From Promethearchaeota archaeon (GTDB lineage: Archaea > Asgardarchaeota > Thorarchaeia > Thorarchaeales > Thorarchaeaceae): a stretch of 64,000 bases of DNA. Location of the stretch: positions 17,241-81,240 of the forward strand of contig JBHLPF010000007.1 in the NCBI GenBank assembly GCA_048939765.1, read 5' to 3'. The translations under genes were made by a program, and so were the position numbers. Every line of letters begins with the position of its first letter. Position 1 is the stretch's first letter. The notes under the pieces were generated by a model that saw only the letters and a program-made list of their open reading frames with translations, was not told the DNA's origin and ran no database searches. Below are positions 3,078 through 53,541 of the stretch, one piece after another.

Positions 3078-3221
3078 CTGAATAATAGTCGAGTCTTGTG
3101 CCGTCGCGCGAGGTTACTAACTGATAAGGGTTCTTACATGACAACAGGTTGTCCGCGTGTTATTTGGAAACGCCTATATGCAGTCTTAGCCGGCATCGGC
3201 CTGTTCAAAAGAGGGATTTCA

Positions 3222-5108
3222 ATGTCAGGAGTCAGATGGGACGAAAAGTACAAGGAGAGGATAATTTCATCCAAGAGTGCCATCAAGAAGATCAAGAGGG
3301 GTGCACGCATCTTCCTAGGAACTGGGTGTGGAGTGCCATATCATTTGGTACAGGAGCTAGCGACTCATGCGGACCAGATGTCGGACAATGAGATAGTCCA
3401 TCTGTTGACTCTAGGCGACACACCTTCCGCAGACCCAAAGTTCCAGGAACAATTCAGGCACAACACCTTCTTCGTATCAGAGAACATCCGTGAAGCAGTT
3501 TCAGAGGGGCGAGCTGACTACTCACCTATAATGCTCTCTGATATTCCTCGTCTCTTTCGGACCAAGAGAATGCCTCTCGATGTTGCATTGATTCAGATTA
3601 GCCCGCCTGATGAGCATGGGTTCAGCTCATTGGGCATCTCGGTCGACATCACAAAGTCTGCTGCAGAGAGTGCAGACCTTGTCATAGCTCAAGTCAACGA
3701 CAAAATGCCCGTCACACATGGAGATTCATTCATTGACATCAAAGATATCGACTATCTGGTTCCATATAATGAGCCTCTGAGGGAGTTCATGTCGCATGAG
3801 GGGGATGAAACCATAGACCTGATTGGCTCCTATGTAGCACGACTCATCGAGAATGAGTCTACTCTGGAGCTAGGGATAGGTGCCTTACCACAGGCCGTCT
3901 GCACTAATCTGGAGGAAACTGGTGTCAAAGACCTTGGAATCCACACCGAGATGTTCAGCGACAGTCTAGTTCCTCTCATAGAGAGTGGAGTTGTCACGAA
4001 CAAGAAGAAGAGCATTCACAGAGGACAGGTCATCGCTAGTTTTGCCATGGGAACAAAGAAACTCTACGATTACATCGATAACAATCCAATGTTTCACTTT
4101 CATGACACAGCCTACGTCAATGACCCATATGTCATAGGTCAGAACAAAAAGATGATAGCTATCAACTCGGCGCTTGAGATTGACCTGACAGGCCAGGTAT
4201 GTGCAGACTCGATTGGTCATAAGTTCTACAGTGGGATTGGCGGTCAGGTAGATTTCATCCGTGGAGCGTCAAGGTCACCAGGTGGGAAAGCTATTATTTG
4301 TATGCAGTCTACAGCCATGGATGGTAAGGTTTCACGGATTGTGCCGCGACTAAGTGAGGGAGCAGGGGTAGTTACGACACGGGGAGATGTTGATGTCGTT
4401 ATAACCGAGTTTGGCCTGGCTATATTGCACGGCAAGACCATCAGAGAACGAGTGCTATCACTGATTGCAGTTGCACATCCGGATTTCAGAAATGAGTTGC
4501 TTGAGGCAGCAAAGAAGATGCACTATGTCTTCGAGGATCAGGTACCGTTTCAAGTGAAGGGAACTTACTTCCCAACAGAATATGAATACCAAGAATCATT
4601 CAAAGGTGTCGAGGGACCTATCAACGTCCGCTTTAGACTCACTCGGCCAGACGATTCGGACAGGATAAAGGATCTATTCTATGGCCTCTCAGAAGAGAGC
4701 ATATACTTCAGGTTCTTGACACCCCTGAGGAGTCTACCCCGACGCACCCTGCAAGACTTCTACGATGTGGATGCCGACCGTGATGTATCGATTGTGGCAG
4801 TAGTCAGTCCAGGCACTGAGGGTAAAGCAGAGAGAATCATAGGAGCAGGGAGGTATTTGCTCAATAGAAGCACCAACGAGGCTGAGTTTGCACTTCTTGT
4901 TCGAGATGAGTATCAAGGAATTGGAATTGGGAGTTTCATGCTAACTCATCTGATGAGGATTGCTAAGAGCAAAGGCGTAGACGCCTTTGTTGCTTTCGTA
5001 CACCCGAAGAATCAGCCTATGATCAGGTTTCTGCATAAGACGGGCAAGATAGTTGAAAGTCATCTGAGCATTCAGGACGACGAGTATACCTTCAAGCTCA
5101 AACTCTAA
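3222..5108 (+). CDS. Acetyl-CoA hydrolase/transferase (4-hydroxybutyrate CoA-transferase-like) domain fused to a C-terminal GNAT acetyltransferase domain, copy 1
   Basis: ORF 3006..5108. The start is moved to the ATG at 3222 (MSGVRWDEKYK) by alignment with the paralog start MACEEWTDKYK. CoA-transferase motifs: GTGCGVP, SPPDEHGFSSLGISVD, STLELGIG, INSALEIDLTGQV, FYSGIGGQVDF. C-terminal GNAT: LSEESIYFRFL, AEFALLV, YQGIGIGSFML. Confidence 0.8.
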   Translation: MSGVRWDEKYKERIISSKSAIKKIKRGARIFLGTGCGVPYHLVQELATHADQMSDNEIVHLLTLGDTPSADPKFQEQFRHNTFFVSENIREAVSEGRADYSPIMLSDIPRLFRTKRMPLDVALIQISPPDEHGFSSLGISVDITKSAAESADLVIAQVNDKMPVTHGDSFIDIKDIDYLVPYNEPLREFMSHEGDETIDLIGSYVARLIENESTLELGIGALPQAVCTNLEETGVKDLGIHTEMFSDSLVPLIESGVVTNKKKSIHRGQVIASFAMGTKKLYDYIDNNPMFHFHDTAYVNDPYVIGQNKKMIAINSALEIDLTGQVCADSIGHKFYSGIGGQVDFIRGASRSPGGKAIICMQSTAMDGKVSRIVPRLSEGAGVVTTRGDVDVVITEFGLAILHGKTIRERVLSLIAVAHPDFRNELLEAAKKMHYVFEDQVPFQVKGTYFPTEYEYQESFKGVEGPINVRFRLTRPDDSDRIKDLFYGLSEESIYFRFLTPLRSLPRRTLQDFYDVDADRDVSIVAVVSPGTEGKAERIIGAGRYLLNRSTNEAEFALLVRDEYQGIGIGSFMLTHLMRIAKSKGVDAFVAFVHPKNQPMIRFLHKTGKIVESHLSIQDDEYTFKLKL

Positions 5109-5179
5109 TCTCCTTAGCCTGTTGGAAATCTCTATATGCCCCGTAGGACCTTGAAGCCAACAATCCAGAGGCGAAATGC

Positions 5180-7072
5180 ATGGCTTGTGAGGAATGGACT
5201 GACAAGTATAAGGACAAGATGCTGTCAGCGGAACAAGCCATAAAGAAAATCAAGCGAGGTACGCGTATCTTCCTTGGCACTGGCTGTGGAGTACCATTCC
5301 ATCTCATGCAGGAGCTGGCAAAGAACGCAAACAAGATGGCTGATAACGAGATAATCCATATGATTACTCTAGGTGACACGCCGTCTGCAGATCCGCATTT
5401 TCAAGAACGTTTCAGGCACAATACCTTCTTTGTTTCAGACAATATACGATCAGCGGTATACGAGGGCAGAGCGGACTATACTCCCACCCATCTCTCAGAC
5501 ATCCCTAGGTTCTTTAGCTCAAAGAGGATTCCATTGGATGTCGCGCTGATTCAAGTCAGTCCTCCTGACGAACATGGGTACTGCTCTCTGGGTATCTCAG
5601 TGGACATCACAAGATCGGCTGCCGAGAATGCAGATCTGGTGATTGCTCAGGTCAATGAGAATGTACCAGTCACCCATGGTGACTCGTTCTTTCATATTCG
5701 TGACATTGACTACCTTGTATGTCATAATGAGCCACTTAGGGAATATCAACCAGAAGAAACAGACGAGAAGAGTGACCTCATAGGGAGCTATGTGGCAAGG
5801 CTAATCGAGAATGAGTCAACAATAGAGCTGGGGATAGGAAGGCTTCAGAGATCTGTCGTCAAACACTTGTTGGAATCCGATGTGAGGGATCTGGGGATTC
5901 ATACGGAGCGATTCGGAGATTCCATCATCGATTTGATTGAAAGTGGCATTGTGACCAATAAGAGGAAGAGCATCAACAGGGGAAAAATCACTACAAGCTT
6001 TGCTATGGGCACACAGAAACTCTATGACTATGTTGACAATAATCCGATGTTTGAGTTTCGAGAGACTTCGTATGTCAATAATCCATCCATTATTGCGCAG
6101 AACCACAAGATGGTGGCAATCAACTCAGCTTTAGAAGTGGACCTAACGGGACAGGTGTGCTCTGACTCCATAGGTCACAGGTTCTACAGTGGTATAGGGG
6201 GGCAAGTGGACTTCATCAGAGGGGCATCCATGTCACCTGGTGGAAAGGCCATCATATGCATGACATCTACTGCATTGGATGGCACTGTTTCAAGGATTGT
6301 GCCACGTCTAAGCGAGGGAGCAGGGGTGGTGACAACACGTGGTGACGTTGAGGTAGTAATCACTGAGTATGGGCAAGCAACTCTCAGAGGAAGGACCATC
6401 CGAGAGCGTGTGTTATCACTGATTGCTATCGCGCATCCTAAGTTCCGGAACAACTTACTTGAAGCGGCGAAAGAGATGCGTTATGTATTCTCAGACCAAA
6501 TCCCGTTTCAGGTAAAAGGCACATACTTCCCCCTTGAATATGAAGCACACGAGACCTTTGATGGCCAAGAAGGCGAGATCGATGTTCGGTTCCGATTAAT
6601 CAGACCTGATGACACGGACAGAATCAAGGAGTTGTTCTATGACCTGAGCGAAGAATCGATCTTCTTCAGATTCCTTACACCTCTCGAGAGCCTCCAAAGG
6701 CAGACATTGCAAGACTTCTACAATGTAGACCAGTCAAGAGACATCAGCATTGTAGCAACAATCTGTTGTGACGAAGAGGGCACCACCGAGAAGATAATTG
6801 GTGCAGCAAGGTATCTTCTTGACTTTCATAAGAATGAGGCTGAGTTTGCCATTCTCATCCAGGATGATTACCAAAAGAGGGGTATTGGAACGTTCCTACT
6901 TTCTCACTTGATGCGAATAGCTAAGAGCAAAGGTGTGAAGGCGTTCCTTGCTTATGTGCATCCAAAGAATCAGCCCATGATTAGGTTTCTGCAGAAGTTC
7001 GGACTGTCAATGACACTGGAGAGTTATCCCAATATCCAAGAGAATGAATATGTCTTCAAATTGATCCTCTAG
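5180..7072 (+). CDS. Acetyl-CoA hydrolase/transferase domain fused to a C-terminal GNAT domain, copy 2 (tandem paralog)
   Basis: 630-aa ORF, collinear with copy 1 and roughly 70 percent identical by eye. It has the same motifs (STIELGIG, FYSGIGGQVDF, LSEESIFFRFL, AEFAILI, YQKRGIGTFLL). Confidence 0.8.
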   Translation: MACEEWTDKYKDKMLSAEQAIKKIKRGTRIFLGTGCGVPFHLMQELAKNANKMADNEIIHMITLGDTPSADPHFQERFRHNTFFVSDNIRSAVYEGRADYTPTHLSDIPRFFSSKRIPLDVALIQVSPPDEHGYCSLGISVDITRSAAENADLVIAQVNENVPVTHGDSFFHIRDIDYLVCHNEPLREYQPEETDEKSDLIGSYVARLIENESTIELGIGRLQRSVVKHLLESDVRDLGIHTERFGDSIIDLIESGIVTNKRKSINRGKITTSFAMGTQKLYDYVDNNPMFEFRETSYVNNPSIIAQNHKMVAINSALEVDLTGQVCSDSIGHRFYSGIGGQVDFIRGASMSPGGKAIICMTSTALDGTVSRIVPRLSEGAGVVTTRGDVEVVITEYGQATLRGRTIRERVLSLIAIAHPKFRNNLLEAAKEMRYVFSDQIPFQVKGTYFPLEYEAHETFDGQEGEIDVRFRLIRPDDTDRIKELFYDLSEESIFFRFLTPLESLQRQTLQDFYNVDQSRDISIVATICCDEEGTTEKIIGAARYLLDFHKNEAEFAILIQDDYQKRGIGTFLLSHLMRIAKSKGVKAFLAYVHPKNQPMIRFLQKFGLSMTLESYPNIQENEYVFKLIL

Positions 7073-10688: not shown

Positions 10689-12863
10689 TCATCCTAATAA
10701 GAACACAAACCAAGCATTTGCGACTGCAATCAACGGGAGGAATAGAGTCGCTGTCAGAGTGATCACGACTAGTAATGTATTGATGGATGGCCCGGCTGTG
10801 TCCTTAAACGGGTCTCCAACCATATCTCCTGTGACACTAATGTCATGAACACGATGCCATTCTTCAGTTCCTTTCTCGTATTTGGTGTAGTCAGGAGACT
10901 CAATGATTTTCTTGGTATTGTCCCAGGCTCCTCCTGCATTGTCCATCAGGAGGGCCATTATCAGACCGGACATGACAGCACCGCCTAGGTAGCCCGCAAG
11001 TGCTTCCAGTCCAAGAAACACTCCCGACACGATGGTGACTAGTATAGCAATTAGTGTACCAGGCATTAACTCTCTAATTGCCCCTGAAGTAGCAATAGCG
11101 ATGCATGCATGATAGTCAGGTCGGGAAGTGCCCTCGAGAATGCCTGGGTCTTCCTTGAATTGCCTGCGTATCTCTGTGATCATTCGCTCAGAGTTCCGCT
11201 CCACACCAAGAATCAGTATTGCTGAGAAGGTCACTGGAACTAATGCGCCAATTAGAGCTCCGGCTAATACCACAGGTGCCGCAAGATTCACGTTTGTTAG
11301 TGCAATTACACCTGGAATCCGGAGTGTTTCAGTGGACTCAAGAAAGGCTGCAAAAAGGGCCAGCACTGACACTGCTGATGCACCAATGGCAAATCCCTTT
11401 GTGATCGCCTTTGTGGTGTTGCCACTGGCATCCAGTTTATCACATACTACAATTGCCTCTTCGGGTGCTTGAGCCTGTTCGATGACACCTCGTGCGTTAT
11501 CCACAATGGGCCCATATGCATCCGAGCTCATGATCATTCCATTGGTTGACAGTAGGCCAACGGCTGCTATCGCGACACAGTAGATTCCATTCTCCCACGT
11601 CTGTGGACCTAGGGTTGATGCCCCTGATCCAAGAAGAAATGAAGCCACCATGGCTACACCAATACCAACCACAGATGGGACCGCACTCAGCAGACCGTAT
11701 GAGTAGCCTGACAGGATTAGATTCGCAGAACTCTTGTCTGCAGACTCGACCATTTTTTGCACGGGCGTGAATCCTCCAAAACCTCGGTCGCTGGTGAACA
11801 CATCACTTGTAAAGCCGATGAATACACCAGCAAAGAGACCGACGATTGCTGCCAGTGCTATTGCGAGGTCGAGCTGTAGAAACAGTACCATGGACACCGT
11901 GAAGATAGCAAATAGAATCGTCGTGATATAGGTCCCTCGATTCAATGCGGGTCCTGGATCTTGGTCTGGCTTCGCTCTGACCAAGAAGACACCGATTACT
12001 GAGGCGATAGTCCCAAGAGCAGCAATCATGAGAGGTAGGAGCCCAAACAGCTGGACGCCATCCAAGTGCAAGTCAATGCCAGCACCAAGGATTGAGGCCG
12101 CGAGGATAGCTGCCACATTGCTGTCATACAGGTCTGCTCCGGTTCCAGCTACGTCGCCAACATTGTCACCGACCGCATCAGCAACAGCAGCGGGATTTCT
12201 AGGGTCATCTTCAGGAATGTGATGTTCAATCTTGCCAACAAGATCAGCCGAAAGGTCAGCAGTCTTTGTATATATGCCGCCGCCAGCTTTGGCAAACAAG
12301 GCTACTGTGCTAGCTCCAAATGAGAAACCCGTAATAATCTCCCAGAGGGCAACTGCAGGCTCCACACCAATTGCCTCAAAGACCTCCGCAGGAATGACAG
12401 TATTCCAAAGGAAATAGAGAGTCCCTAGTCCGACTAGCGCTATCCCGGCGATCATCAGCCCCATTACTGAGCCAGCTCGGAATGCCACTTTGAAGGCAGG
12501 AACAAGTCCCCCTGTTTCCGCAGCCGCGGCTGTTCGACGGTTTGCTTTGGTAGCCACGACTATTCCAACATATCCCGCAGCCATGCTAGCCCCTGAGCCG
12601 AGGATATAAGAAATGGCGATTTGAATGCCGAAGTCTCGAAATAGAATTGCGATGAGTATCGCAAGAATCAGAGTAAAGATTGTGAGTATCTTGTATTGAA
12701 CCTTGATGAAAGAGTATGCGCCTTCTTCAACTAGTGCACTGACTTCGCGCATTTTTTCGCTGCCTTGGTCTTCTTTCTTGACCTGATAGTAGATGATGAA
12801 GGCGACAAGTATTGCTAGCACACCCGATGCAATACTTGTTCCTAGGAAAAGTGGGGCCGCCAT
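10689..12863 (-). CDS. hppA: Membrane-bound proton/sodium-translocating pyrophosphatase
   Basis: 724-aa polytopic ORF with the signatures GDNVGDVAGTGADLYDS, DNAGGAWDNTKK and GDMVGDPFKDTAGPSINTL. Confidence 0.95.
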   Translation of the reverse strand: MAAPLFLGTSIASGVLAILVAFIIYYQVKKEDQGSEKMREVSALVEEGAYSFIKVQYKILTIFTLILAILIAILFRDFGIQIAISYILGSGASMAAGYVGIVVATKANRRTAAAAETGGLVPAFKVAFRAGSVMGLMIAGIALVGLGTLYFLWNTVIPAEVFEAIGVEPAVALWEIITGFSFGASTVALFAKAGGGIYTKTADLSADLVGKIEHHIPEDDPRNPAAVADAVGDNVGDVAGTGADLYDSNVAAILAASILGAGIDLHLDGVQLFGLLPLMIAALGTIASVIGVFLVRAKPDQDPGPALNRGTYITTILFAIFTVSMVLFLQLDLAIALAAIVGLFAGVFIGFTSDVFTSDRGFGGFTPVQKMVESADKSSANLILSGYSYGLLSAVPSVVGIGVAMVASFLLGSGASTLGPQTWENGIYCVAIAAVGLLSTNGMIMSSDAYGPIVDNARGVIEQAQAPEEAIVVCDKLDASGNTTKAITKGFAIGASAVSVLALFAAFLESTETLRIPGVIALTNVNLAAPVVLAGALIGALVPVTFSAILILGVERNSERMITEIRRQFKEDPGILEGTSRPDYHACIAIATSGAIRELMPGTLIAILVTIVSGVFLGLEALAGYLGGAVMSGLIMALLMDNAGGAWDNTKKIIESPDYTKYEKGTEEWHRVHDISVTGDMVGDPFKDTAGPSINTLLVVITLTATLFLPLIAVANAWFVFLLG

Positions 12864-28888: not shown

Positions 28889-30157
28889 TCATAGGATTCT
28901 TCGTAGACCAAGTTCTTTCAGGTCCTTTTGAGTTTCCTCAGGCGGCTTGCGCTGCATCAGTTTCCTTTCAAGAGGCTTTAGTCGATCCTCCCATGAAGGG
29001 CGTCCTGTGATGGGTGGCACCTTTCCGAAGTCTCGTGCTTTCTGGGAAGCTGATTTTGTAGCAGTGGCGCTCACATGCGATGCCAGTATACCGAGTTCTG
29101 AAAGACGCGCTTTTCCAAGCAACTTTGATGCAGTGGATTCCTCCTTTGACCGTGGTAGTAACTGTGGGCTTTTTACGCCAGTAAGAATCAACATGACTCG
29201 TAGTACTCCACTCAGGCGGGGGTCGACTCGTGCCCCCCAGATTACATTCGCATCCGTGCTCATCTTCTCTGATACTAGCTCTCCAACCTTGTTTGCCTCA
29301 GCCAGGGACATATCTGGACCGCCAGTAATATGTATCAGAGCCCCAGTCGCTCCAGTCCACTCTACTTCGAGAAGGGGACTATTCAGAGAGTTTCGTATCG
29401 CCTCATTCGCTCTGTCTGACCCAGTGGCTTCTCCAAGGCCAACAAGTGCTACGCCACCGTTACAGATTATTGAACGGACGTCTGCATAGTCGAGATTGAT
29501 TAGACTGGGCATTGTGATGGTCTCGGTGATTCCTTTCACCATATTTGCAAGGACCTCGTCAGCGACTCCAAATGCTTCCTCAAGCGGCAGGTCAGGCACT
29601 AGCTCCATGAGTTTCTGATTGTCAATCACCACCGCTGTGTCAACATTCTCTTGGAGACGCGCAAGACCAGCTGTTGCTTTATCAATGCGGGTCCGTTCCA
29701 AGCTGAATGGCATTGTGATGACCCCGACAACAATGGCATCATTCTTCTTGGCAATCTCAGCAATTACAGGTGCACTTCCGGTTCCTGTGCCACCACCCAT
29801 CCCTGCAGCAATGAACACAAGGTCCGCATCACGTAGAAGCTCAGTAAGCTGATGTGTAGATTCCTCGGCAGCAGCCTGACCCACGTGGGGATATCCTCCG
29901 GCACCAAGACCACGTGTGATTCGCTCACCTATCAAGAGCTTTCGATGAGCTGTGGTCACAGCAAGGTGCTGGCGGTCTGTGTTGATGGCAACGCACTCGG
30001 CGCCTTGGACTCCGATCGTCATCAGCCGCTTCACTGTATTATTTCCTGCACCACCACAACCAACCACTACAATCCGTGCCTGACCCATGTCACGTTGAGG
30101 AAAACCGCTCCTTTCAACGCGACTGTGTTCTCTAGCTGAATCGATCAGTGATTTCAT
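28889..30157 (-). CDS. ftsZ: Cell division GTPase FtsZ (with a long C-terminal tail)
   Basis: 422-aa ORF with [34 protein letters not shown] and NLDYADV. Confidence 0.95.
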
Positions 30158-33428: not shown

Positions 33429-35795
33429 TCAAAACCGCGTCTGCTCAGTCCTGGATATAATCTCGTCTTGGAGGGGCTTGCCAAGATTGACGAAATAGTC
33501 ACTATAGCCTGCGACTCTCACGATGAGGTCACGATATTTCTCTGGATTCTGCTGAGCCTCAAGTAGTGTGTCCCTCTTGATCACATTGAACTGTATATGG
33601 TGACCTCCTAGCTTGAAGTAAGCCCTAACTAGATGGGCCAGATTAGACCTGCCTTCTTCATCAGCTACGATGTCAGGCATAAGCTTCTGATTCAGGAGAG
33701 TTCCGCCTGTTCGTGAATGATCAATCTTTGCGACTGATTTGATCACCGCTGTTGGTCCGTTGGTATCAGCACCGTGAGAGGGTGAAACACCATCAGAGAG
33801 TGGCCGGCCAGATTTGCGCCCATTGGGAGTGGCTCCAGTGACCTGCCCGAAGTAGATATGAACAGTCGTCGGGAGAAGGTTTACACGATATTCTCCGCCT
33901 CTAGTGTTAGGCCGACCATCTAGCATATCGAAATACCCATTGAAGATTGACTGCGCAATGCTGTCAGCATAGTCATCATCGTTGCCATATGCAGGGCTTT
34001 TGTTAACAAGCATCTGACGGATGGTTTCATGGCCCTCGAAGTTGTCGTTCATTGCCTTAAGCAGGTCTGTCATTGGTAGCGCTTTCTTGTCATAGACATG
34101 ATATTTCATGGCTGAGAGAGAGTCGGTCAATGTGCCCATCCCCACTCCTTGAATGTAGGTGGAGTTGTATCTTGAGCCTCCATCGTGATAGTCCCTGGCC
34201 TGTGCTATGCAGTCGTCCATCAGAAGTGACATGAATGGGGATGGCATATATTGCGCATACAGTCGTTCGATGATGTTGTTGCCTTTGATCTTTAGGTCTA
34301 CAAAGTACCTCAACTGCTTCTTGAATGCTTCAAACATCTCATCATAAGAACCAAAAGCCTCAGGATTTCCGGTCTCGAGTCCCACCAATGTTCCGGATGC
34401 GGGGTCGATTCCATTATTCAGTGTGATCTCTAAAATCTTTGGCCAATTCAAGTATCCTGTGAGGATGACGCTCTCTTTTCCGAATGCGCCTATCGTGACG
34501 CATCCACTAGGCCCACCCATTCGTGCGTCTTCAACAGATTTGCCCATCCGCAGGAATTCTTTGATTATGACGTCGGTGTTGAACATGGAAGGCTGACCAA
34601 GTCCTGTGCTCACCACATCAACAGCTCTCAGTAGAAATTCCTCAGGATTCTCCTTACTGATTTGGATGCACACGCTTGGCATGATAAGCTGCATCTCTTC
34701 ACAGACCTCAAGCAAGAGATATGAAAGGTCATTCACAGCGTCGTTGCCATCTATCGTAAGACCGCCTGTGTTGATGAGAGTGAAGTCTTGGTAGGTGCCA
34801 CTCTGTTCCTCTGTGATTTCCACTTTAGGTGGTGCAGGCTGATTGTGAAATTTAACCCAGAAACACTGCAGTAGTTCTTTCGCAAAATCCCTGGTCATAA
34901 GTCCATTATCAAGATCGTTCTTGTAGAAAGGAAATAGGTTGATGTCAAGCCGCCCGGGATTGAATGAATCCCACACATTCAGCTCGATGATTACGCCAAG
35001 ATGCACAAACCAGTATGCCTGTAACGCCTCCCAGAAGTTTCGAGGCGCATTCGCAGGAACATGGCTACATACTTCTGCTATCTTCTCGAGCTCTTTCTTT
35101 CTCTCAGGAATGCTCTCTGATTCTGCTAGCTCCTTGGCTTTGTCAGCATGACGTTGTGCGAACTCGATTATGGCTTCTGCGACGATACGAATTGCCGTGA
35201 GCTCTTGTTCCTTGGCATAGGCTTCTTTGTCATTGTAGAAGTCAATCTTGTCCAATTGCTCATCGATGTCCTGAATGAAGTCATTGACCCCCCTTTGGTA
35301 TATCTTGTCATCGAGGATTGCATGACCAGGGGCGCGTTGTTCCATGAACTCTGTGTAGACGCCCGCTTCGAATGCCTTCATCCACTCCTCGGACATTGCT
35401 GCAAACACGCGTTCGCGCATAGTACGCCCGCGCCAGAATGGGATAACGTCCTCGCGGTAGACCTCCTTTGCGTCATCACTGACTATGAAGCGAGATCTGA
35501 CACGGTTATTGCAGATCTCCAAGTCGGATATAGTATGACAACAGAGCTCTGGATACGTTGGAGTCGCTCTTGGACTTGGACCGCGCTCTCCAACAATGAG
35601 CTCGTCTTCGCCTATGTAGATTTCTTTGTTGAGAAGGATATATCGAAAGGCCTTGGCCCGTGCCATAGGATAAGAGAGGTTGTCAGTGCCACCACTCTGA
35701 TAGAAATCAGTGACTAACTCGGCCCTTTCTGTAGAGATATATGGGCTTGTCCTGATACTCTGTTCTCTCAGGCGCCCAACTCTCTCTGTGGTCAT
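33429..35795 (-). CDS. Glycyl-radical enzyme (PFL2 / dehydratase-type family)
   Basis: 788-aa ORF. The C-terminal glycyl radical motif is VRVAGYSDYF. There is a single active-site Cys in the context GGPSGCVTIG. Confidence 0.9.
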   Translation of the reverse strand: MTTERVGRLREQSIRTSPYISTERAELVTDFYQSGGTDNLSYPMARAKAFRYILLNKEIYIGEDELIVGERGPSPRATPTYPELCCHTISDLEICNNRVRSRFIVSDDAKEVYREDVIPFWRGRTMRERVFAAMSEEWMKAFEAGVYTEFMEQRAPGHAILDDKIYQRGVNDFIQDIDEQLDKIDFYNDKEAYAKEQELTAIRIVAEAIIEFAQRHADKAKELAESESIPERKKELEKIAEVCSHVPANAPRNFWEALQAYWFVHLGVIIELNVWDSFNPGRLDINLFPFYKNDLDNGLMTRDFAKELLQCFWVKFHNQPAPPKVEITEEQSGTYQDFTLINTGGLTIDGNDAVNDLSYLLLEVCEEMQLIMPSVCIQISKENPEEFLLRAVDVVSTGLGQPSMFNTDVIIKEFLRMGKSVEDARMGGPSGCVTIGAFGKESVILTGYLNWPKILEITLNNGIDPASGTLVGLETGNPEAFGSYDEMFEAFKKQLRYFVDLKIKGNNIIERLYAQYMPSPFMSLLMDDCIAQARDYHDGGSRYNSTYIQGVGMGTLTDSLSAMKYHVYDKKALPMTDLLKAMNDNFEGHETIRQMLVNKSPAYGNDDDYADSIAQSIFNGYFDMLDGRPNTRGGEYRVNLLPTTVHIYFGQVTGATPNGRKSGRPLSDGVSPSHGADTNGPTAVIKSVAKIDHSRTGGTLLNQKLMPDIVADEEGRSNLAHLVRAYFKLGGHHIQFNVIKRDTLLEAQQNPEKYRDLIVRVAGYSDYFVNLGKPLQDEIISRTEQTRF

Positions 35796-41728: not shown

Positions 41729-42565
41729 ATGGAGCATGAAAGAGGATTTATCTCACAGGACGCCCTCCAACAGCTCATGCCCAGGGTCCTGATACATGAC
41801 ATTGAAACCTACTATGAAATAGCCGGCGAGGGAGAAGCAATCGTGTTTGTTCACGGCGCAGCTGGTTCTCACGACAACTGGCGCCCTCAGGTTAAGCACC
41901 TGTCCGACCGCTTCGAAGTCGTGACATACGATATAAGGGGACACGGGAAGTCAAGTGGGTCTGACAGGAAATATAGCTGTGAGCTCTTCGCAGATGATCT
42001 GAATGGGCTGATAACCGCACTCGAGTTAGAAAGACCCGTTGTCTGTGGGCTCTCTCTTGGAGGGATGATAGCCCAGCAGTACGCTGTAAGGCATCAGTCC
42101 GGTCTTGCGGGACTTGTACTGGCGGACACTGCAGTGGCCTCAGCTCTGACCCTCTCAGACAAGCTTCAGAAATGGATGTTCCCAGTGAGCCTGGTCAAAT
42201 GGTATATTCGCAGAAAGACTCCAGAAGACTATGCGAGATGGTCATTCAAGTATTTCGACATGAAGGATGATGTGAGAGAGTATCTGATTCAGGAACAACT
42301 TCGAATGGATCAGACAGAGTTTCTCAAACTGATGGATGCCATCTATGGGTTTAAGCTGCTTGACCTTGCCAGCATCAAAGTGCCAACGCTTGTGGTACTG
42401 GGTGAGAATGAACGAAAGGCAGTCTTTCCGCATGCAGACAAGATGATAGAGCTGATTGAGGGCTCAAGGAAGGTCGTTATTCCGGATGCTGGACATGCCT
42501 CCAATCTAGAGAATCCCACCGAGTTCAATCGAGTGCTTGACGAGTTCTTGGAACACGTGTTCTAA
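41729..42565 (+). CDS. Alpha/beta hydrolase fold protein
   Basis: Has VFVHGAAGSHDNW, the nucleophile elbow GLSLGG and DAGHASNLE. The start may be at 41777. Confidence 0.8.
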   Translation: MEHERGFISQDALQQLMPRVLIHDIETYYEIAGEGEAIVFVHGAAGSHDNWRPQVKHLSDRFEVVTYDIRGHGKSSGSDRKYSCELFADDLNGLITALELERPVVCGLSLGGMIAQQYAVRHQSGLAGLVLADTAVASALTLSDKLQKWMFPVSLVKWYIRRKTPEDYARWSFKYFDMKDDVREYLIQEQLRMDQTEFLKLMDAIYGFKLLDLASIKVPTLVVLGENERKAVFPHADKMIELIEGSRKVVIPDAGHASNLENPTEFNRVLDEFLEHVF

Positions 42566-44160
42566 ATCTTCTTCTCGAGATAGGGTCCTGTATCGTTGAA
42601 ATCAAGGGCGCGATAATATTCCTTGACTCCAATTCCGCTGTTCACAATCAGCCTGTTGACTTGGAAATCCTCGAGTGTGATTCGCTCTGCCTCTTTGAGC
42701 ATGCGGTCTCCAAGACCCAAATGCTGCCACGCATCCGGGTTCCTCTCACCAATCTCTACAACAGGACCATACACTCTGAGCTCTCTAATAATGGCGCAGG
42801 GGCTATGATTAATCTCGGGGCGGTGAGCCTGGTCACTGGGCATGCGGAGTCTGAGGAATCCAAAGATGATATCTTGACTTTGCTTCTCGAAGGAAAGAAA
42901 GATTTCTAGGCCATCTGCAGCCTCATAGTCACGACGCACCAGCTCAATACCTTCAAAACTCACCTTTTGTCCGGTCCGCATCTGAAAGTGACCAATCTCT
43001 CTGTATCGAATCGTTGGGTTTCTCAGACCTTTCTCACTCATTCGATGATGCACCAGCTCTCGTAGGTTTCCTTTGCTGAAACCAGCCTCTATCTGATGGA
43101 GTGGGATGTCCCTCTGCATCCTCTGGATACGAACATACTCGGGCATTTTGCTGACTGCATTAGAGACGAGTTCCACGACTTGATCATCAGAATAGGGACT
43201 GTATATTCCCTGTTCCCACCACTCGAACAGCTTTGTATTCTTCACCACAAGCGTAGGATAGATCTTCAGCATATCTGGTTGAAACCTAGAATCAGTGAAT
43301 AATGCTTCAAAGTCTTCAAGGTCAGAGTCTGAAGTATTTCCAGGTAGACCAGGCATCATATGATAGCACACTTTCAGTCCGCTATCCCTGAGCATCTTTG
43401 TCGCTTGGATGGTCTGTTCAAGCAGATGACCTCTCTGTACCCGTTCTAGGACCTCATCCGAGAGCGTCTGAACACCGATTTCCACACGGGTAGCACCCAT
43501 TTCCAGCATGCTATCGATGCTTTCAGGAATCACCCAATCCGGTCGAGTTTCGAATGTGAGACCTACGTTGCGGACCTTAGCTGTTTCGTTCGTCTTCTGT
43601 GACTCATTCAAACTCCCTCCGACTGTCCTATTCATTGCATCGAAACAGCCCTTGACAAAAGACTCCCTGTAGTCAGGCTCCTTCGAACACCAGTCGCCAC
43701 CCATGACTATTAGTTCCACCTTTTGGACCGAATGACCGATCGTATCCAACTGATTTAGCCTGCTCTCTACCTGCCTGAATGAATCAAAGTCATTTTGCAG
43801 CCCTCTCATTGTGGCAGGTTCATGACCTGTATAGCTCTGGGGAACTCCTGCATCAGGCCCACCAGGACAATATGCGCACGCACCATGAGGACACTTATGA
43901 GGTTCTGTCATGACAGCAACAACAGCGACTCCGGAAACTGTACGAACAGGTCGTTTCTGCATCAGAGGCTGAAGTATTTCTAGCTCTTCAGGAATTGCCG
44001 CTTGCAACACGTCTGCGTTTGATGGGACTCGGGACGCCTTATGCAGTCCACAGATCCTGCTCTTGATTTGATTTATCTCACGCCGATCAAGAGCCGTTTC
44101 TGAGCTAAGAAGGGATTCGATAATCTCTCTATACAGTGCATAGTAATCTGGGAGAGGCAT
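42562..44160 (-). CDS. elp3: Elp3-type radical SAM + GNAT tRNA U34 modification enzyme
   Basis: 532-aa ORF with PHKCPHGACAYCPGGP, a radical-SAM TIM region and a C-terminal GNAT (HLGLGDRMLKEAE). Confidence 0.9.
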   Translation of the reverse strand: MPLPDYYALYREIIESLLSSETALDRREINQIKSRICGLHKASRVPSNADVLQAAIPEELEILQPLMQKRPVRTVSGVAVVAVMTEPHKCPHGACAYCPGGPDAGVPQSYTGHEPATMRGLQNDFDSFRQVESRLNQLDTIGHSVQKVELIVMGGDWCSKEPDYRESFVKGCFDAMNRTVGGSLNESQKTNETAKVRNVGLTFETRPDWVIPESIDSMLEMGATRVEIGVQTLSDEVLERVQRGHLLEQTIQATKMLRDSGLKVCYHMMPGLPGNTSDSDLEDFEALFTDSRFQPDMLKIYPTLVVKNTKLFEWWEQGIYSPYSDDQVVELVSNAVSKMPEYVRIQRMQRDIPLHQIEAGFSKGNLRELVHHRMSEKGLRNPTIRYREIGHFQMRTGQKVSFEGIELVRRDYEAADGLEIFLSFEKQSQDIIFGFLRLRMPSDQAHRPEINHSPCAIIRELRVYGPVVEIGERNPDAWQHLGLGDRMLKEAERITLEDFQVNRLIVNSGIGVKEYYRALDFNDTGPYLEKKI

Positions 44161-49713: not shown

Positions 49714-50421
49714 CTAGATGTCTAGTGACTGTTGCGTTGTTTCTGCATCTTCCTGAAGTCTTCTGACAGATTCCCAACTCTTTCTTACGATTGACGGGAG
49801 TTCGTCTCCATCTTCAATGAGTTTGCGGATGAAGTCTACAGAATTGGGATCTGAGGGATAGCCAGAGCCAAAGTTTCCATATTCTTGATGTAGACTGGCA
49901 ACAATGCGCTCTCGTTCTTCTTTGGCAATAATCGATGCAGCAGACACGATTGGAAACTTTGAGTCCGCCTTATGTTCAGATATAATCTTGCAGCCAAGAA
50001 GTGTTAACCCACTCCGGTCTCCAATGACATCCCCGAATCTGTCTGCTTTGACGTCTGCTGCATCAAGATAAGCAGTCTTTGGGCTCAGTTTTGAGAGGAC
50101 CGAAACAAACTGCTGAACCTCAATCTCGTTGAGAGAAACGCCCCTGCCTCTAAGACCGTCTATCTCAGCCGCTGATATGACTCTTATCTCGGTCTTATCG
50201 ACAATCCCAGCAATCAGTTCAGCCAAGGTGGCCCTCCGTTTTGGAGAGAGCGTCTTGGAGTCTCTCACTCCACTGGCTGCAAGCCTAGGTAATTCAGTTT
50301 CGTGAACTAAGACCCCAGCAACAACCAGGGGCCCTATCATTGGCCCTCGGCCTGCCTCGTCAATCCCTGCCACTCCTCTCAAGACGCTCCCCTTTTTGTT
50401 CATGCTCTGGGACCAATCCAT
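49714..50421 (-). CDS. rnhB: Ribonuclease HII
   Basis: Has GIDEAGRGPMIGPLVVAGV and DSKTLSPKRR. The track ORF extends to 50580 across the tRNA-Trp gene. The start is placed at Met 50421 (alternative 50403). Confidence 0.9.
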   Translation of the reverse strand: MDWSQSMNKKGSVLRGVAGIDEAGRGPMIGPLVVAGVLVHETELPRLAASGVRDSKTLSPKRRATLAELIAGIVDKTEIRVISAAEIDGLRGRGVSLNEIEVQQFVSVLSKLSPKTAYLDAADVKADRFGDVIGDRSGLTLLGCKIISEHKADSKFPIVSAASIIAKEERERIVASLHQEYGNFGSGYPSDPNSVDFIRKLIEDGDELPSIVRKSWESVRRLQEDAETTQQSLDI

Positions 50422-50463
50422 CTTGCTTATTGTACACTCAGCAGCACGGTGCAGAACTGAAAG

Positions 50464-50601
50464 TGGTGGGGCGAGTGGGATTTGAACCCACGATCGACGA
50501 GTGTCTTCTACGACGACGGTCAGCGTTTTGACCCTGCTATTCAGACGCGAAATGCATCTAGATCTGGAGCCCGTCGCCATGCCGGACTAGGCCACCGCCC
50601 C
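50464..50601 (-). tRNA. tRNA-Trp (anticodon CCA) with a roughly 61-nt canonical (37/38) intron, CCA encoded
   Basis: Acceptor GGGGCGG/TCGCCCC, anticodon stem ACGGG/CTCGT. The loop CTCCAG-[intron, about 50503-50563]-A is interrupted. T arm GTGGG-TTCAAAT-CCCAC, then A-CCA. Confidence 0.8.
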
Positions 50602-50848
50602 GAATCAAGGCGCAGGATGCTGGAACGAGTTAATAACCTTTCGTCAATCAGGCTCCATTAGACCTTCTCATTCACCACAATTGCTGACAATGCAACCGCT
50701 TTTCAGGTGTCTTGTGATTGATGGACCTATTGAACTAGTCAAGTTCTGCAACTAACTTCTCAAATGCAGAGAACACATTCACCAAGAATGGTTTCATACC
50801 ATGTGTCACAGAATGTTAGAAATACTCTCTGTAACTGCCTGATGTTGA

Positions 50849-51730
50849 ATGGGAAATCTGGATGGCACGGAAGGTATTCTATTGATCCTGGGTAGTATCT
50901 TGCTTAAGGTTGCCCCGAAAATCAAGAAAGCGTGGGCTAGAATTTGGCCAATCGATGGTGAGAAGGAGATACTATCAAAACTGACTCCGTGGATTATTGA
51001 GCGAAAGCCCAAACTCAGAAAGGGGGCTGTGCTACGGCGGAATCTCAACAGTAGCAGATGGTATGCATACGAGTGTACTGAAGACCTATTTGTCGTCCTC
51101 ATCACAGACGGCAAAGAGTCAGACGAGATGATTATAGATAGAGTGCGGAGGGCGGGTCGAGCAGTAAGGAGTGAATTGGAAAACCAGTCAGTCACAAAGG
51201 TGTTCAAGAAATACACCGAGATTGTGACACCATTCTTAGAGTCCAAGCTCGTGGTCGCTCTAGTAGGGACTAGGGGAGTAGGAAAGACGACTACCATGCA
51301 CTTGCTGCTTGGACACAGACCTCCTGAGGTCTATATTCCCACAATGGGTATGAACACGACGAGCCTTGAGGGAATGGACATCTCAAACTGTACTGTTGAT
51401 CTCTGGGACCTCGGAGGCGACGACGAGGTCAACAAAGTCTGGGAATCATGTCTAGTCAATGTTGATGTCATACTGTTGTTGACAGACTCAACTCTGAAGA
51501 ATGTCTTGGAGTCCCAGAAGCTGGCGTCTGAAATCATGAGCTGTGCAGAAACAGCTTCTCTGACAGTGATAGCCAATAAACAGGACCTGCCTAATGCCTT
51601 GGCGCCATCAGTGGTCGAGAAGGTCTTCAACATGGAGGCGCATCCACTGGTGGCTACAGACCTGACTGAACATGAAGAGGCTGAGAGAATTCTGAAACAC
51701 AGCCTTGCCAGCCATATTGGATTCACATAA
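50849..51730 (+). CDS. Arf-family small GTPase with a roughly 140-aa N-terminal extension
   Basis: 293-aa ORF. G1 is GTRGVGKTT, switch I is YIPTMGMN, G3 is WDLGGD and G4 is ANKQDLPNAL, which is almost literally the eukaryotic Arf motif. The N-terminal part has a hydrophobic segment (GILLILGSILL) and an alpha/beta-looking region. Confidence 0.8.
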   Translation: MGNLDGTEGILLILGSILLKVAPKIKKAWARIWPIDGEKEILSKLTPWIIERKPKLRKGAVLRRNLNSSRWYAYECTEDLFVVLITDGKESDEMIIDRVRRAGRAVRSELENQSVTKVFKKYTEIVTPFLESKLVVALVGTRGVGKTTTMHLLLGHRPPEVYIPTMGMNTTSLEGMDISNCTVDLWDLGGDDEVNKVWESCLVNVDVILLLTDSTLKNVLESQKLASEIMSCAETASLTVIANKQDLPNALAPSVVEKVFNMEAHPLVATDLTEHEEAERILKHSLASHIGFT

Positions 51731-52053: not shown

Positions 52054-53175
52054 ATGCAGTTACCAGGTCTAGAAGGCGATTATACAGGGCTCATCAATAT
52101 TGTATTCCTCGTGTTCATCATCATGATGAGTCTTTATGGAGCTAGAATACAGATGTGGCAGTGGCTCAAGCAAATAGAGGCTAGCCTTGCTGAGCTTGAA
52201 CAAATGAAGAAAGAGTCGATGCAGAAAGCAATTGAAACGTTCAACAAGTTCGGTAGAAACGAGGATGAGGTCGAGAAGGAACTTGCTCGTTGGCTAGACT
52301 ACTTCACGATAATGCCTGTGGATTTAGACCCGGCTGGGATACTGAAACGGTTGGACCATCTCCTGGATGAACGTCGAGACCGGTTTCAAGAGTTCGTATC
52401 AGAGCTTGCACCAGAAGGTGGCACAGCTGAGCATCAGTCATTGGAGAATACCCTTGAGGTGACTCAGGTTCTAGACCTGATCTTCCGTATCGTCCGACAC
52501 TTCTACCTGATTGGGAAGAAGACTGGGAGTCAAATAATGATCATGCAGATTCACATGCAACTCCCGGACATCATGCGGCTGGCAAAGGCATACTTCGATG
52601 CCCTTGATGCGTTTGCGGATGGTAAGCCTATCGGAGATGGCATTGGACCGTTGGTAGTCACTCGGTTCGCTCGCGAATATGGCGGAACTCCTGACAGATA
52701 TGTTCACGAAATCAGCAAAGAGGTTGGATATTATCCTATTGAGGTCGAAGGACGCACAGTCTATGCTATAAGGGCTACTGGCCCTGGTGGCACAGTAGGA
52801 AAACCAGGCTTCGCCGTCAAGAAGATAGTCGACGACAATAAGGGAAAGATCGCCAGAATCATCACAATCGATGCCGCTCTAAAACTCGAGGGGGAGGACC
52901 TTGGACGTGTTTCAGAGGGAACTGGCGCTGCAATAGGCGATCCCGGCCCTGAAAAGTATGCCATGGAGCAGACTGCAACAGAGAATGACATCGGCATCGA
53001 GGCCATTGTTATTAAAGAGGATGAGGCTGCAGCCGTCGGTGTGTTGGACAAGAAGATTCTTGACTCTGTGCCTGAGGTCATAGAGAGGATTAAGACGTCG
53101 ATTCTAAAGAGAACAAAGCCCGGTGACAAGATCATCCTAGCGGGAATTGGAAACACTATTGGAATTGGACTCTGA
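52054..53175 (+). CDS. DUF1512-like archaeal protein (N-terminal TM helix)
   Basis: 373-aa ORF with an N-terminal hydrophobic helix followed by coiled-coil and then a globular part. The family assignment is from memory. Confidence 0.5.
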   Translation: MQLPGLEGDYTGLINIVFLVFIIMMSLYGARIQMWQWLKQIEASLAELEQMKKESMQKAIETFNKFGRNEDEVEKELARWLDYFTIMPVDLDPAGILKRLDHLLDERRDRFQEFVSELAPEGGTAEHQSLENTLEVTQVLDLIFRIVRHFYLIGKKTGSQIMIMQIHMQLPDIMRLAKAYFDALDAFADGKPIGDGIGPLVVTRFAREYGGTPDRYVHEISKEVGYYPIEVEGRTVYAIRATGPGGTVGKPGFAVKKIVDDNKGKIARIITIDAALKLEGEDLGRVSEGTGAAIGDPGPEKYAMEQTATENDIGIEAIVIKEDEAAAVGVLDKKILDSVPEVIERIKTSILKRTKPGDKIILAGIGNTIGIGL

Positions 53176-53187
53176 GGTGACTGAGAT

Positions 53188-53541
53188 ATGGGATTAGTCA
53201 GCAAAATACTGGGAATCGGCATTGCCGCATCTGGAATAGTAATCCTGTTCTTTGGGTCTTCAGACCCTGTCTGGTCCTTTGGTTACTACATACTTGGCCT
53301 CATACTGATGTCTGTAGGACTGACATTGGTCACTTCAAGAAGCGCGGCTGGAGAGAAGAAACCACCGCCACCAACTGTGACAGACATAAGATGTGATAAT
53401 CTGGAGTGTACATTCAAGGAGATTAGAGACTTCCAGAAGGGTGACTATATTCTAAAGCCCATGGAGACTCAATGCCCGAAATGTCAAAGTACCATGACAA
53501 TTCAAGGAGTGTATATTGTCAGAGAGCAGGAGCCAGAATAG
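53188..53541 (+). CDS. Small membrane protein with a C-terminal zinc-ribbon-like motif
   Basis: 117-aa ORF with two TM helices, then CDNLEC...(20 aa)...CPKC. Confidence 0.5.
   Translation: MGLVSKILGIGIAASGIVILFFGSSDPVWSFGYYILGLILMSVGLTLVTSRSAAGEKKPPPPTVTDIRCDNLECTFKEIRDFQKGDYILKPMETQCPKCQSTMTIQGVYIVREQEPE

Follow-up and report, generated by a model that had tools for sequence, protein, structure and literature searches.

A predicted longin-fused ArfL GTPase with an atypical active site in Thorarchaeota

Results

The gene and its product

The 64,000-nucleotide stretch of contig JBHLPF010000007.1 from a Promethearchaeota archaeon analysed here (the window) contains a complete open reading frame (ORF) that encodes a small GTPase with an N-terminal extension. 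An initial annotation made from the letters alone described the product as an Arf-family GTPase with near-eukaryotic motifs, and took it as a clue to an Asgard host. The comparisons below indicate that it is an atypical-active-site member of the longin-fused ArfL GTPases of Asgard archaea, and not a near-eukaryotic Arf. The gene and its parts are as follows.

50849..51730, + strand: complete ORF of the predicted longin-ArfL small GTPase, ATG start, 293 codons plus stop
50801..50848, + strand: upstream block with the A/T-rich box TTAGAAATA (50816-50824), a putative archaeal TATA element, from alignment of orthologues
50876..51184, + strand: predicted longin-fold domain, residues ~10-112, from AlphaFold2 (AF2), Foldseek and hhalign
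51185..51241, + strand: predicted amphipathic helical linker, residues 113-131 (helices 115-120 and 122-130), leading into strand β1 of the G domain, from AF2
51242..51727, + strand: Ras-superfamily G domain, ArfL group, residues 132-293, from Pfam, Foldseek, BLAST and a neighbour-joining (NJ) tree
51266..51289, + strand: P-loop (G1) GTRGVGKT, residues 140-147, from motif position
51272-51274, + strand: codon of Arg142, at the position of Ras Gly12 and Arf1 Asp26, from motif position
51332..51355, + strand: switch I (G2) YIPTMGMN, residues 162-169, with Mg-coordinating Thr165, aligned to Arf IPTIGFN
51404..51424, + strand: G3 and start of switch II, WDLGGDD, residues 186-192, aligned to Arf WDVGGQD
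51419-51421, + strand: codon of Asp191, at the catalytic Gln position, from HMMER alignments to Arf
51572..51601, + strand: G4 ANKQDLPNAL, residues 242-251, with guanine specificity motif NKQD; N243, K244, Q245 and D246 invariant
51647..51661, + strand: G5 equivalent LVATD, residues 267-271 (family consensus VAID); A269 and D271 invariant in the family alignment

All the motifs quoted in the initial annotation (YIPTMGMN, WDLGGD, ANKQDLPNAL and GILLILGSILL) are found in this ORF. GILLILGSILL occupies residues 9-19 and the stretch WYAYEC...RRAG residues 71-103. The protein has ~131 amino acids (aa) before strand β1 of the G domain and 139 aa before the P-loop, and it ends ~25 residues past G5. 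An identical protein is already present in NCBI, as MFX1261373.1 and under three other accessions, with the automatic name "ADP-ribosylation factor-like protein" and the same gene call on the public contigs. The products of neighbouring genes are 83-97% identical to proteins encoded in the same order on contigs of Thorarchaeota metagenome-assembled genomes (MAGs), so the guess of an Asgard host was right.

Three orthologous loci (the window, L006 and L007) show near-identity over the ~50 nt that precede the ATG, and the sequences further upstream have diverged. Conservation of this block across orthologues supports the start codon. Its A/T-rich box TTAGAAATA lies ~25-33 nt 5′ of the ATG and, judging from its position, the block is likely to be the archaeal promoter of a leaderless or very short-leader mRNA. 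When the window was compared with three orthologues, the ratio of non-synonymous to synonymous substitution rates (dN/dS) was 0.12-0.15 over the whole ORF; the N-terminal part gave 0.14-0.25 and the G domain 0.10-0.14. The low values in both parts indicate purifying selection on both domains. A true start near residue 140, which would make the extension of roughly 140 aa an annotation artefact, is ruled out by conservation of the N-terminal domain (N-domain), by its dN/dS and by the conserved upstream block. The extension is thus genuine: it is conserved, constrained and confidently modelled.

The G domain groups with ArfL sequences

In the literature, Asgard "Arf-like" GTPases fall into two groups: ArfR (AArf), the source clade of eukaryotic Arf, and ArfL (Klinger et al. 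2016), which is specific to Asgard archaea. The phylogenies given in Vargova et al. 2024 and Zhu et al. 2025 place ArfL outside Arf/ArfR. As ArfL references we used seven tree-classified sequences listed in Table S3 of Vargova et al. 2024. The window G domain matched all seven, with 84-105 bits and 31-40% identity. Its scores against other references were 49-68 bits for Arf-type, 32-38 for RasL, 22-37 for RagGtr and ~26 for MglA sequences, and the Lokiarchaeum ArfR gave no match to it in this comparison. In an NJ tree built from 146 trimmed columns, the relatives of the window protein (described below) and the ArfL references formed one clade in 200 of 200 bootstraps. The protein therefore does not belong to the Arf family proper.

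The ArfL hallmark motifs are [LV]TDST..NV after switch II, IANKQDLPxA, and VAI[DN] as G5. Their counterparts in the window protein are LLLTDSTLKNV, IANKQDLPNAL and VATD. The same hallmarks are present in NVM28297.1, NVM28342.1 and KKK45962.1, and VAID or VAIN is also found as G5 in published ArfL sequences. An N-domain of ~130 aa starting MI[HR]... likewise precedes the G domain in the ArfL proteins NVM28342.1, NVM30058.1, NVM30212.1, NVM28386.1 and KKK45962.1 (Lokiarch_05490). Across the family P164 of switch I is invariant and T165 nearly so. In the HMMER alignment the β2-β3 hairpin is 3 residues longer than that of Arf, owing to an insertion between IPT and WD, and Thr165 and Asp187 are accordingly 22 residues apart; the equivalent spacing in Arf1, T48 to D67, is 19 residues.

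By motifs, hidden Markov models and fold the G domain is nevertheless Arf-like, as had been stated at the outset. The best Pfam model is Arf (PF00025), which matches residues 133-264 with 65.4 bits (cutoff 22.3; E=5.9e-18), too strongly for a chance likeness. Roc scored 44.7, Ras 40.9, Gtr1_RagA 18.6 (below threshold) and SRPRB 18.5 bits. In relatives that retain the catalytic Gln (Gln-type) the scores of the Arf, Roc and Ras models lie close together (79, 74 and 67). The top 60 matches in a PDB sequence search were all Arf or Arl proteins. A Foldseek search with the full model returned Arl1, GerdArfR1 (8OUM), Arf1 and Arf6 (TM-score, TMt, 0.75-0.81) at the top, together with HodArfR1 (8OUK); Rab7, KRAS and Ran followed closely.

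The N-terminal region is predicted to adopt a longin fold

The full-length AF2 model, made with the family alignment, had a mean predicted local distance difference test score (pLDDT) of 83.9 and a predicted TM-score (pTM) of 0.72. The N-domain modelled alone gave the same elements, with pLDDT 86.0 and pTM 0.81. These are β1 (13-20), β2 (26-31), α1 (38-55), β3 (61-66), β4 (69-77), β5 (80-86) and α2 (92-112); in both models residues 1-9 are disordered and no helix precedes β1. The order β-β-α-β-β-β-α without a helix before β1 indicates longin rather than roadblock topology. The linker that follows has a hydrophobic moment of 0.57, and its residues Y122 and P128 are conserved in Thorarchaeota-type relatives.

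When the isolated N-domain was compared with the PDB using Foldseek, the top 50 matches all belonged to the longin/roadblock superfamily (TMq 0.5-0.64, probability ~1.0). NPRL2 of GATOR1 was the best (TMq 0.64), and the list includes Npr2 of the SEA complex, σ-adaptins, ζ- and δ-COP, Ykt6, Sec22b, VAMP7, Rag C-terminal domains, MglC and a Thorarchaeota roadblock protein; roadblock proteins appear only at ranks 24-50. A profile of the N-domain gave only sub-threshold matches to PDB sequences, enriched in the longins of AP-3 μ/σ, VAMP7 and Ykt6. The N-domains of Lokiarchaeota/Helarchaeota-type relatives match PF19036 (Fuz/Mon1/HPS1 longin) with 34-37 bits (cutoff 26.1), and also Clat_adaptor_s. 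Comparison of the Thorarchaeota-type N-domain profile with the Lokiarchaeota/Helarchaeota ArfL N-domain profile by hhalign gave a probability of 96% (E 4.3e-9, 92 columns). The roadblock/longin-type domain guessed in the initial annotation is thus supported, and topology, fold matches and profile comparison together point to a longin-fold domain specifically.

The best-conserved N-domain positions among the 125 representatives with an extended N-terminus are a basic K/R column at 70 (81%), Asp87 (71%) and an acidic column at 90 (64%). Longins that act as GTPase-activating proteins (GAPs), as in FLCN, NPRL2 and SMCR8, have a GP motif in the β1-β2 loop and a conserved catalytic Arg finger (PMC12290439). 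Across the 125 representatives Arg does not exceed 50% in any N-domain column, and the β1-β2 loop of the window protein, VAPKI, has no GP motif. A built-in GAP longin with an Arg finger is therefore not supported. The built-in regulator proposed in the initial annotation is plausible by analogy.

Two readings of the extreme N-terminus did not hold. GILLILGSILL, which had been read as a hydrophobic helix, forms strand β1 of the longin fold in both AF2 models, and it aligns with the much less hydrophobic family sequence MIHSTVLL. The run without charges spans just 11 residues, and the highest 19-residue Kyte-Doolittle average is 1.51; on these values and the β-strand modelling a transmembrane helix was rejected. 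The MGN start, to which attention had also been drawn, is not conserved, orthologues beginning MLNE.., MDD.. or MILG.., and an Arf-like myristoylation signal is therefore not indicated. The Arf-type N-terminal amphipathic helix is absent from the protein terminus, where the ~100-aa longin domain lies; the amphipathic linker helix is internal.

The catalytic Gln is replaced in a Thorarchaeota subclade

The Gln-to-Asp change reported in the initial annotation is real. In HMMER alignments Asp191 lies opposite the Gln of WDVGGQ, and the change is kept throughout a subclade of 21 distinct sequences (the Asp-type subclade), which extends down to 65% identity and comes from three species-representative MAGs. 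The family consensus is GEGGVGKT ... WDFAGQERFRKLWKLYFQGADIV, with WDFAGQE at G3, and the window subclade has GTRGVGKT ... WDLGGDDEVNKVWESCLVNVDVI. Switch II is rewritten in the subclade (DLGGDDEVNKVWESCLVNV versus DFAGQERFRKLWKLYFQGA). Asp191 and Arg142 (GTR[G/S]VGKT) are present in all 21 sequences, in which G1, G2 (Thr165), G3 DxxG, G4 NKQD and the G5 Ala/Asp are intact. This small Thorarchaeota subclade, marked by WDLGGDD, by an Arg in the P-loop and by an altered switch II, is the only feature reported here that has not been described before.

Family members were sought by a word-indexed search and by an exhaustive profile search (50% clusters, E <= 1e-30). Among the best 149 of 201 representatives from the profile search, 133 keep the catalytic Gln; in ~15 its place is taken by D, G, H, E, R, K, T or A. 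Loss of the Gln is thus recurrent in the family, in ~10% of representatives. A P-loop Arg was found only in the Asp-type clade and in P0059 (GMRGVGKT with DYAGGEG), and in none of the 133 representatives with Gln. With two events only, the apparent association between P-loop Arg and Gln loss is anecdotal. The DLGG of the window G3 resembles that of Sar1, which has His instead of Gln; Arl13b has Gly. Since these bona fide members of the Arf family also lack the Gln, its absence alone does not disqualify a protein from Arf membership.

Distribution and architecture of the family

The word-indexed search gave ~68 proteins of ~280-310 aa, nearly all from Thorarchaeota, many of which align over 90-100% at 30-40% identity. 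In the profile search, the P-loop is preceded by 100 or more residues in 125 of the 149 representatives analysed, and 70 of the 149 are longer than 400 aa. The related loci are restricted to Asgard archaea: in species-representative genomes, the best 80 of at least 533 are from Thor-, Promethe-, Hermod- or Odinarchaeota or from unclassified archaeal MAGs. The combination of a longin with an Arf-like G domain is not new. A 2016 report (cited in PMC4917890) lists five longin domains in fusion with Arf-like GTPases of Lokiarchaeum, and the architectures longin-G, G-roadblock and longin-G-roadblock are described for Promethearchaeum MKD1 from AF2 models in Tran et al. 2024.

A large ArfL subfamily of 540-660 aa, for example at L035 (Thorarchaeota SMTZ1-45), L054 (Thorarchaeota AB_25) and L080, has the P-loop GSGGVGKS, the G3 motif WDFAGQAV, the same ~128-aa N-domain and a C-terminal extension of ~350 aa. 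MAG TM1S.110 carries the L080 gene of this subfamily alongside an Asp-type gene (L007). Tandem longin-ArfL paralogues lie at L011 (5265-6691) and L019 (1583-3695), indicating local duplication in the family. The first copy has GEGGVGKT and WDFAGQER, and the second GGTGVGKT and FDFAGQEQ or GESGVGKT and LDFAGQET.

Genomic context

The window contains no paralogue of the GTPase gene, which is its sole ORF with a GxxxxGK[ST]...NKxD pattern. The neighbouring genes are archaeal housekeeping genes, encoding Nop5, fibrillarin, a DUF61 protein, a helix-turn-helix (HTH) protein, RNase HII, a DUF1512 protein and a type-2 methionine aminopeptidase. The order HTH, RNase HII, GTPase, DUF1512, Zn-ribbon, methionine aminopeptidase is common to the window and L006. 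The Asp-type gene follows RNase HII and a tRNA, and is itself followed by DUF1512 in the window and L006 versus a region with a major facilitator superfamily transporter in L007. Three other genes are inserted at L007, and its downstream side is different. The orthologous locus of MAG TM1S.110 (L001, 2197-5900) has three genes without Pfam matches (288, 671 and 149 aa) between RNase HII and the Asp-type GTPase, which the window and L006 lack.

Gln-type relatives in Thorarchaeota, together with two Arg-type relatives (DFAGRE), lie directly upstream of rps13-rps4-rps11 on the same strand at at least 13 loci (L003-L005, L009, L010, L013, L016, L017, L019, L020, L021 and L023 among them, with the GTPase mostly at ~5001-5900), some of them with a second copy in tandem. 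S13 identity between the loci of different species is 69-89%, indicating that this linkage is old. Of the best 80 loci, none of Gln type came from the three genomes that represent the Asp-type subclade. This hints that the Asp-type gene replaced the Gln-type gene, but the MAGs are too incomplete for a conclusion.

Between RNase HII and the GTPase lies an intron-containing tRNA at 50467..50601 on the - strand (135 nt; Rfam 45.7 bits, gathering threshold 29, E 1.4e-8). It was missed by ARAGORN and has an insertion of ~61-65 nt in the anticodon loop. By our own reading of the anticodon loop, CU-CCA-G, it is a candidate tRNA-Trp(CCA). Two CUGA motifs, which are box D-like, lie within the intron. 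The intron of haloarchaeal tRNA-Trp serves as a box C/D guide RNA. The Nop5 and fibrillarin genes lie 3 kb upstream of the candidate. The mechanically called RNase HII ORF (49714..50580, - strand, 288 aa) overlaps the tRNA, and its extension translates the T-arm as ...SWVQIPLAPP...; the public annotation gives a 229-aa protein, which places the real start near 50403.

Downstream of the GTPase, 52054..53541 (+ strand) encodes a 373-aa protein with both DUF1512 domains and then a 117-aa protein. The latter, which no Pfam model matched, combines two hydrophobic segments with a zinc-ribbon-like CxxC...CPxC motif at its C-terminus. The pair is also found downstream of the GTPase at L006 and L086, and not at L007. 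Elsewhere in the window, tandem paralogues at 3006..5108 (+) and 5180..7072 (+) combine acetyl-CoA hydrolase/transferase N- and C-domains with a C-terminal GNAT acetyltransferase. Further genes encode a membrane H+-pyrophosphatase (10689..12863, -), FtsZ (28889..30157, -), a pyruvate formate-lyase-like glycyl radical enzyme (33429..35795, -) and an Elp3-type radical SAM protein (42562..44160, -).

Discussion

We put at about 70% the probability that the protein is a two-domain, longin-fused GTPase of the Asgard-specific ArfL group, working as a switch with altered hydrolysis and with the longin domain as a platform in cis. Since the P-loop GxxxxGKT, Thr165, DxxG, NKQD and the G5 Ala/Asp are all kept, the G domain is expected to bind GTP and GDP and is predicted to act as a conformational switch. 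In Ras, substitutions of Gln61 other than Glu impair hydrolysis. The combination of Asp191, Arg142 and a rewritten switch II would make GTP hydrolysis either very slow, with a long-lived GTP state, or non-canonical, and the subclade may have acquired different regulators or effectors. Judging by analogy from the longin and roadblock modules that serve Rag, MglA, SR-β (belonging to SR, the receptor for the signal recognition particle), Rab and Arf GTPases, the fused longin would most likely provide a platform in cis for dimerisation, or for docking of regulators or effectors near the switch regions. A role for it as a membrane anchor is unlikely.

Several points weigh against this reading. The tree is a simple NJ tree with a single divergent ArfR reference, and the human ARF1 sequence used was entered by hand. 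For the N-domain, the Foldseek E-values are modest (1.5e-3 to 3e-2) and the N-terminal 132 aa of the window protein alone give no meaningful Pfam match. At the active site, the Arf family naturally has a residue other than Gly (Asp) at the position of Ras Gly12, so that Arg142 need not be disabling, and Asp191 might conceivably position the attacking water. For the platform role, the longin domain shows neither a GP motif nor a conserved Arg finger, and no conserved operon partner or adjacent regulator was found among the window, L006 and L007 loci; the case for regulation is one of analogy.

A more specific mechanism is possible but doubtful, namely that Arg142 and Asp191 jointly replace the usual pair of Gln and an Arg finger supplied in trans. 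The protein would then be either a GAP-independent GTPase with an arginine in cis or a constitutively GTP-locked scaffold, and in one Thorarchaeota lineage the subclade would have replaced the ancestral, rps13-linked longin-ArfL gene of Gln type. If so, the co-occurrence of P-loop Arg and Gln loss in two independent lineages, against none of the 133 Gln-bearing representatives, would reflect functional coupling.

A mode of action like that of Rag/Gtr GTPases is unlikely. The longin domains would then join two subunits into an obligate dimer, a canonical paralogue being paired with the Asp-type protein, whose hydrolysis would be impaired or whose regulation would differ. The longin-G proteins of MKD1 are presented in Tran et al. 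2024 as structurally closest to Rag-like GTPases and are modelled there as dimers, and ArfL is placed near Rag/Rup2 in Zhu et al. 2025. The best fold matches of the N-domain come from assemblies that regulate Rag (NPRL2 in GATOR1, Npr2 in SEA) and from the C-terminal roadblock of RagC. ArfL paralogues occur together in MAG TM1S.110 (L007 and L080) and in tandem at L011 and L019, and the RagC P-loop naturally contains an Arg. Against this, the Gtr1_RagA score of 18.6 is below the Pfam threshold of 22 and the RagGtr references reached only 22-37 bits; the domain order is reversed, with the longin N-terminal here and the roadblock C-terminal in Rag; and no partner gene is adjacent.

Nor does it seem probable that the protein is a genuine Arf-family GTPase of ArfR/AArf type, a direct relative of eukaryotic Arf and Sar whose cycling on and off membranes would rely on an amphipathic or hydrophobic stretch at the N-terminus. 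The Arf model is indeed the best in Pfam, the top PDB sequence matches are all Arf or Arl, the best Foldseek matches include 8OUM and 8OUK, crystal structures of Asgard ArfR proteins, the NJ tree has Arf-type sequences as the sister group of the ArfL clade, and the linker helix before β1 is amphipathic. Longin N-termini also occur within the AArf clade according to Zhu et al. 2025. However, the G domain clusters with ArfL in every bootstrap, its scores with ArfL references exceed those with Arf-type sequences 1.5- to 2-fold, and published maximum-likelihood analyses separate ArfL from Arf/ArfR. The longer spacing between Thr165 and Asp187, and the closeness of the Arf, Roc and Ras scores in Gln-type relatives, also argue against an Arf. 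So does the N-terminus, which is modelled as a folded longin domain with an unconserved MGN and with its hydrophobic stretch in strand β1.

A GTPase anchored by GILLILGSILL and the basic, Trp-rich KVAPKIKKAWARIW, lying in or on the membrane, is very unlikely. The β1 segment of the subclade is far more hydrophobic than the family consensus MIHSTVLLRxKS, a Lys/Arg/Trp-rich stretch follows it, and two Lokiarchaeota small GTPases with hydrophobic helices are on record in the literature. The uncharged run is nonetheless only 11 residues long, and the maximum hydropathy average is below the usual 1.6. The segment is modelled as β1 paired with β2 in two independent models (pLDDT ~85) and aligns to longin β1 throughout the family, and the annotated starts of some orthologues (P0009, P0012 and P0090) fall inside the hydrophobic stretch. 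Finally, the idea of a pseudo-GTPase decaying after duplication of the rps13-linked Gln-type gene, suggested by the lost Gln and rewritten switch II, the position away from rps13 and the restriction of the subclade to three species representatives, has next to no chance of being right, given dN/dS of ~0.10-0.15 with both domains constrained, nucleotide-binding motifs that are intact and do not vary among 21 sequences with identities as low as 65%, and a conserved promoter-like block upstream.

The reading as a longin-fused ArfL GTPase agrees best with the published longin-ArfL proteins (Lokiarch_05490/KKK45962.1; Helarchaeota NVM28342.1, NVM30058.1 and NVM30212.1; the MKD1 "L-G" architecture). 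These have the same ~130-aa longin followed by a G domain, and share with the window protein the hallmark motifs, 31-40% G-domain identity, N-domains homologous by hhalign (96%) and restriction to Asgard archaea. Unlike them, the window subclade has Asp for Gln, a P-loop Arg, a rewritten switch II and a more hydrophobic β1, and the window protein is without the long C-terminal extension of many ArfL proteins. Eukaryotic Arf, Arl and Sar1 and Asgard ArfR resemble it in their Pfam, PDB and fold matches and in the WDxGG, NKQDLPNA and IPT motifs. They differ in forming a separate clade, with 21-26% identity in structural alignments; the window protein has a β2-β3 hairpin 3 residues longer, an N-terminal longin, no terminal amphipathic helix and no conserved Gly2.

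Other systems resemble the window protein in pairing a G domain with a longin or roadblock module. In Rag/Gtr and their regulators (NPRL2, FLCN and SMCR8) the likeness is a G domain covalently joined to a domain of the longin/roadblock superfamily; the reversed order, the sub-threshold Gtr1_RagA score and a longin without GP motif or conserved Arg finger set the window protein apart. In MglA-MglB and in SR-β with SR-α (SRX) such a module acts on a small G domain, and MglC is among the fold matches of the window N-domain. There the partners are separate polypeptides, whereas in the window protein they are fused in cis and the N-terminal helix of roadblock domains is missing.

Neither the architecture nor the family of this protein is new, and the analysis corrects an over-reading: "Arf-like" motifs and Pfam matches do not make an Arf. 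What the Asp-type subclade offers is a natural, constrained active-site variant, with Gln replaced by Asp and an Arg in the P-loop, in an uncharacterised group, which would be a convenient partner for biochemical comparison. The stable linkage of the canonical Thorarchaeota paralogue to rps13-rps4-rps11, and the loss of Gln in ~10% of ArfL representatives, are also of value. More widely, Asgard small GTPases fused to longin or roadblock domains are candidates for the precursors of membrane-organising pairs of GTPase and regulator in eukaryotes, such as Rag-Ragulator, SR, adaptor/coat-Arf and TRAPP/Mon1-Rab.

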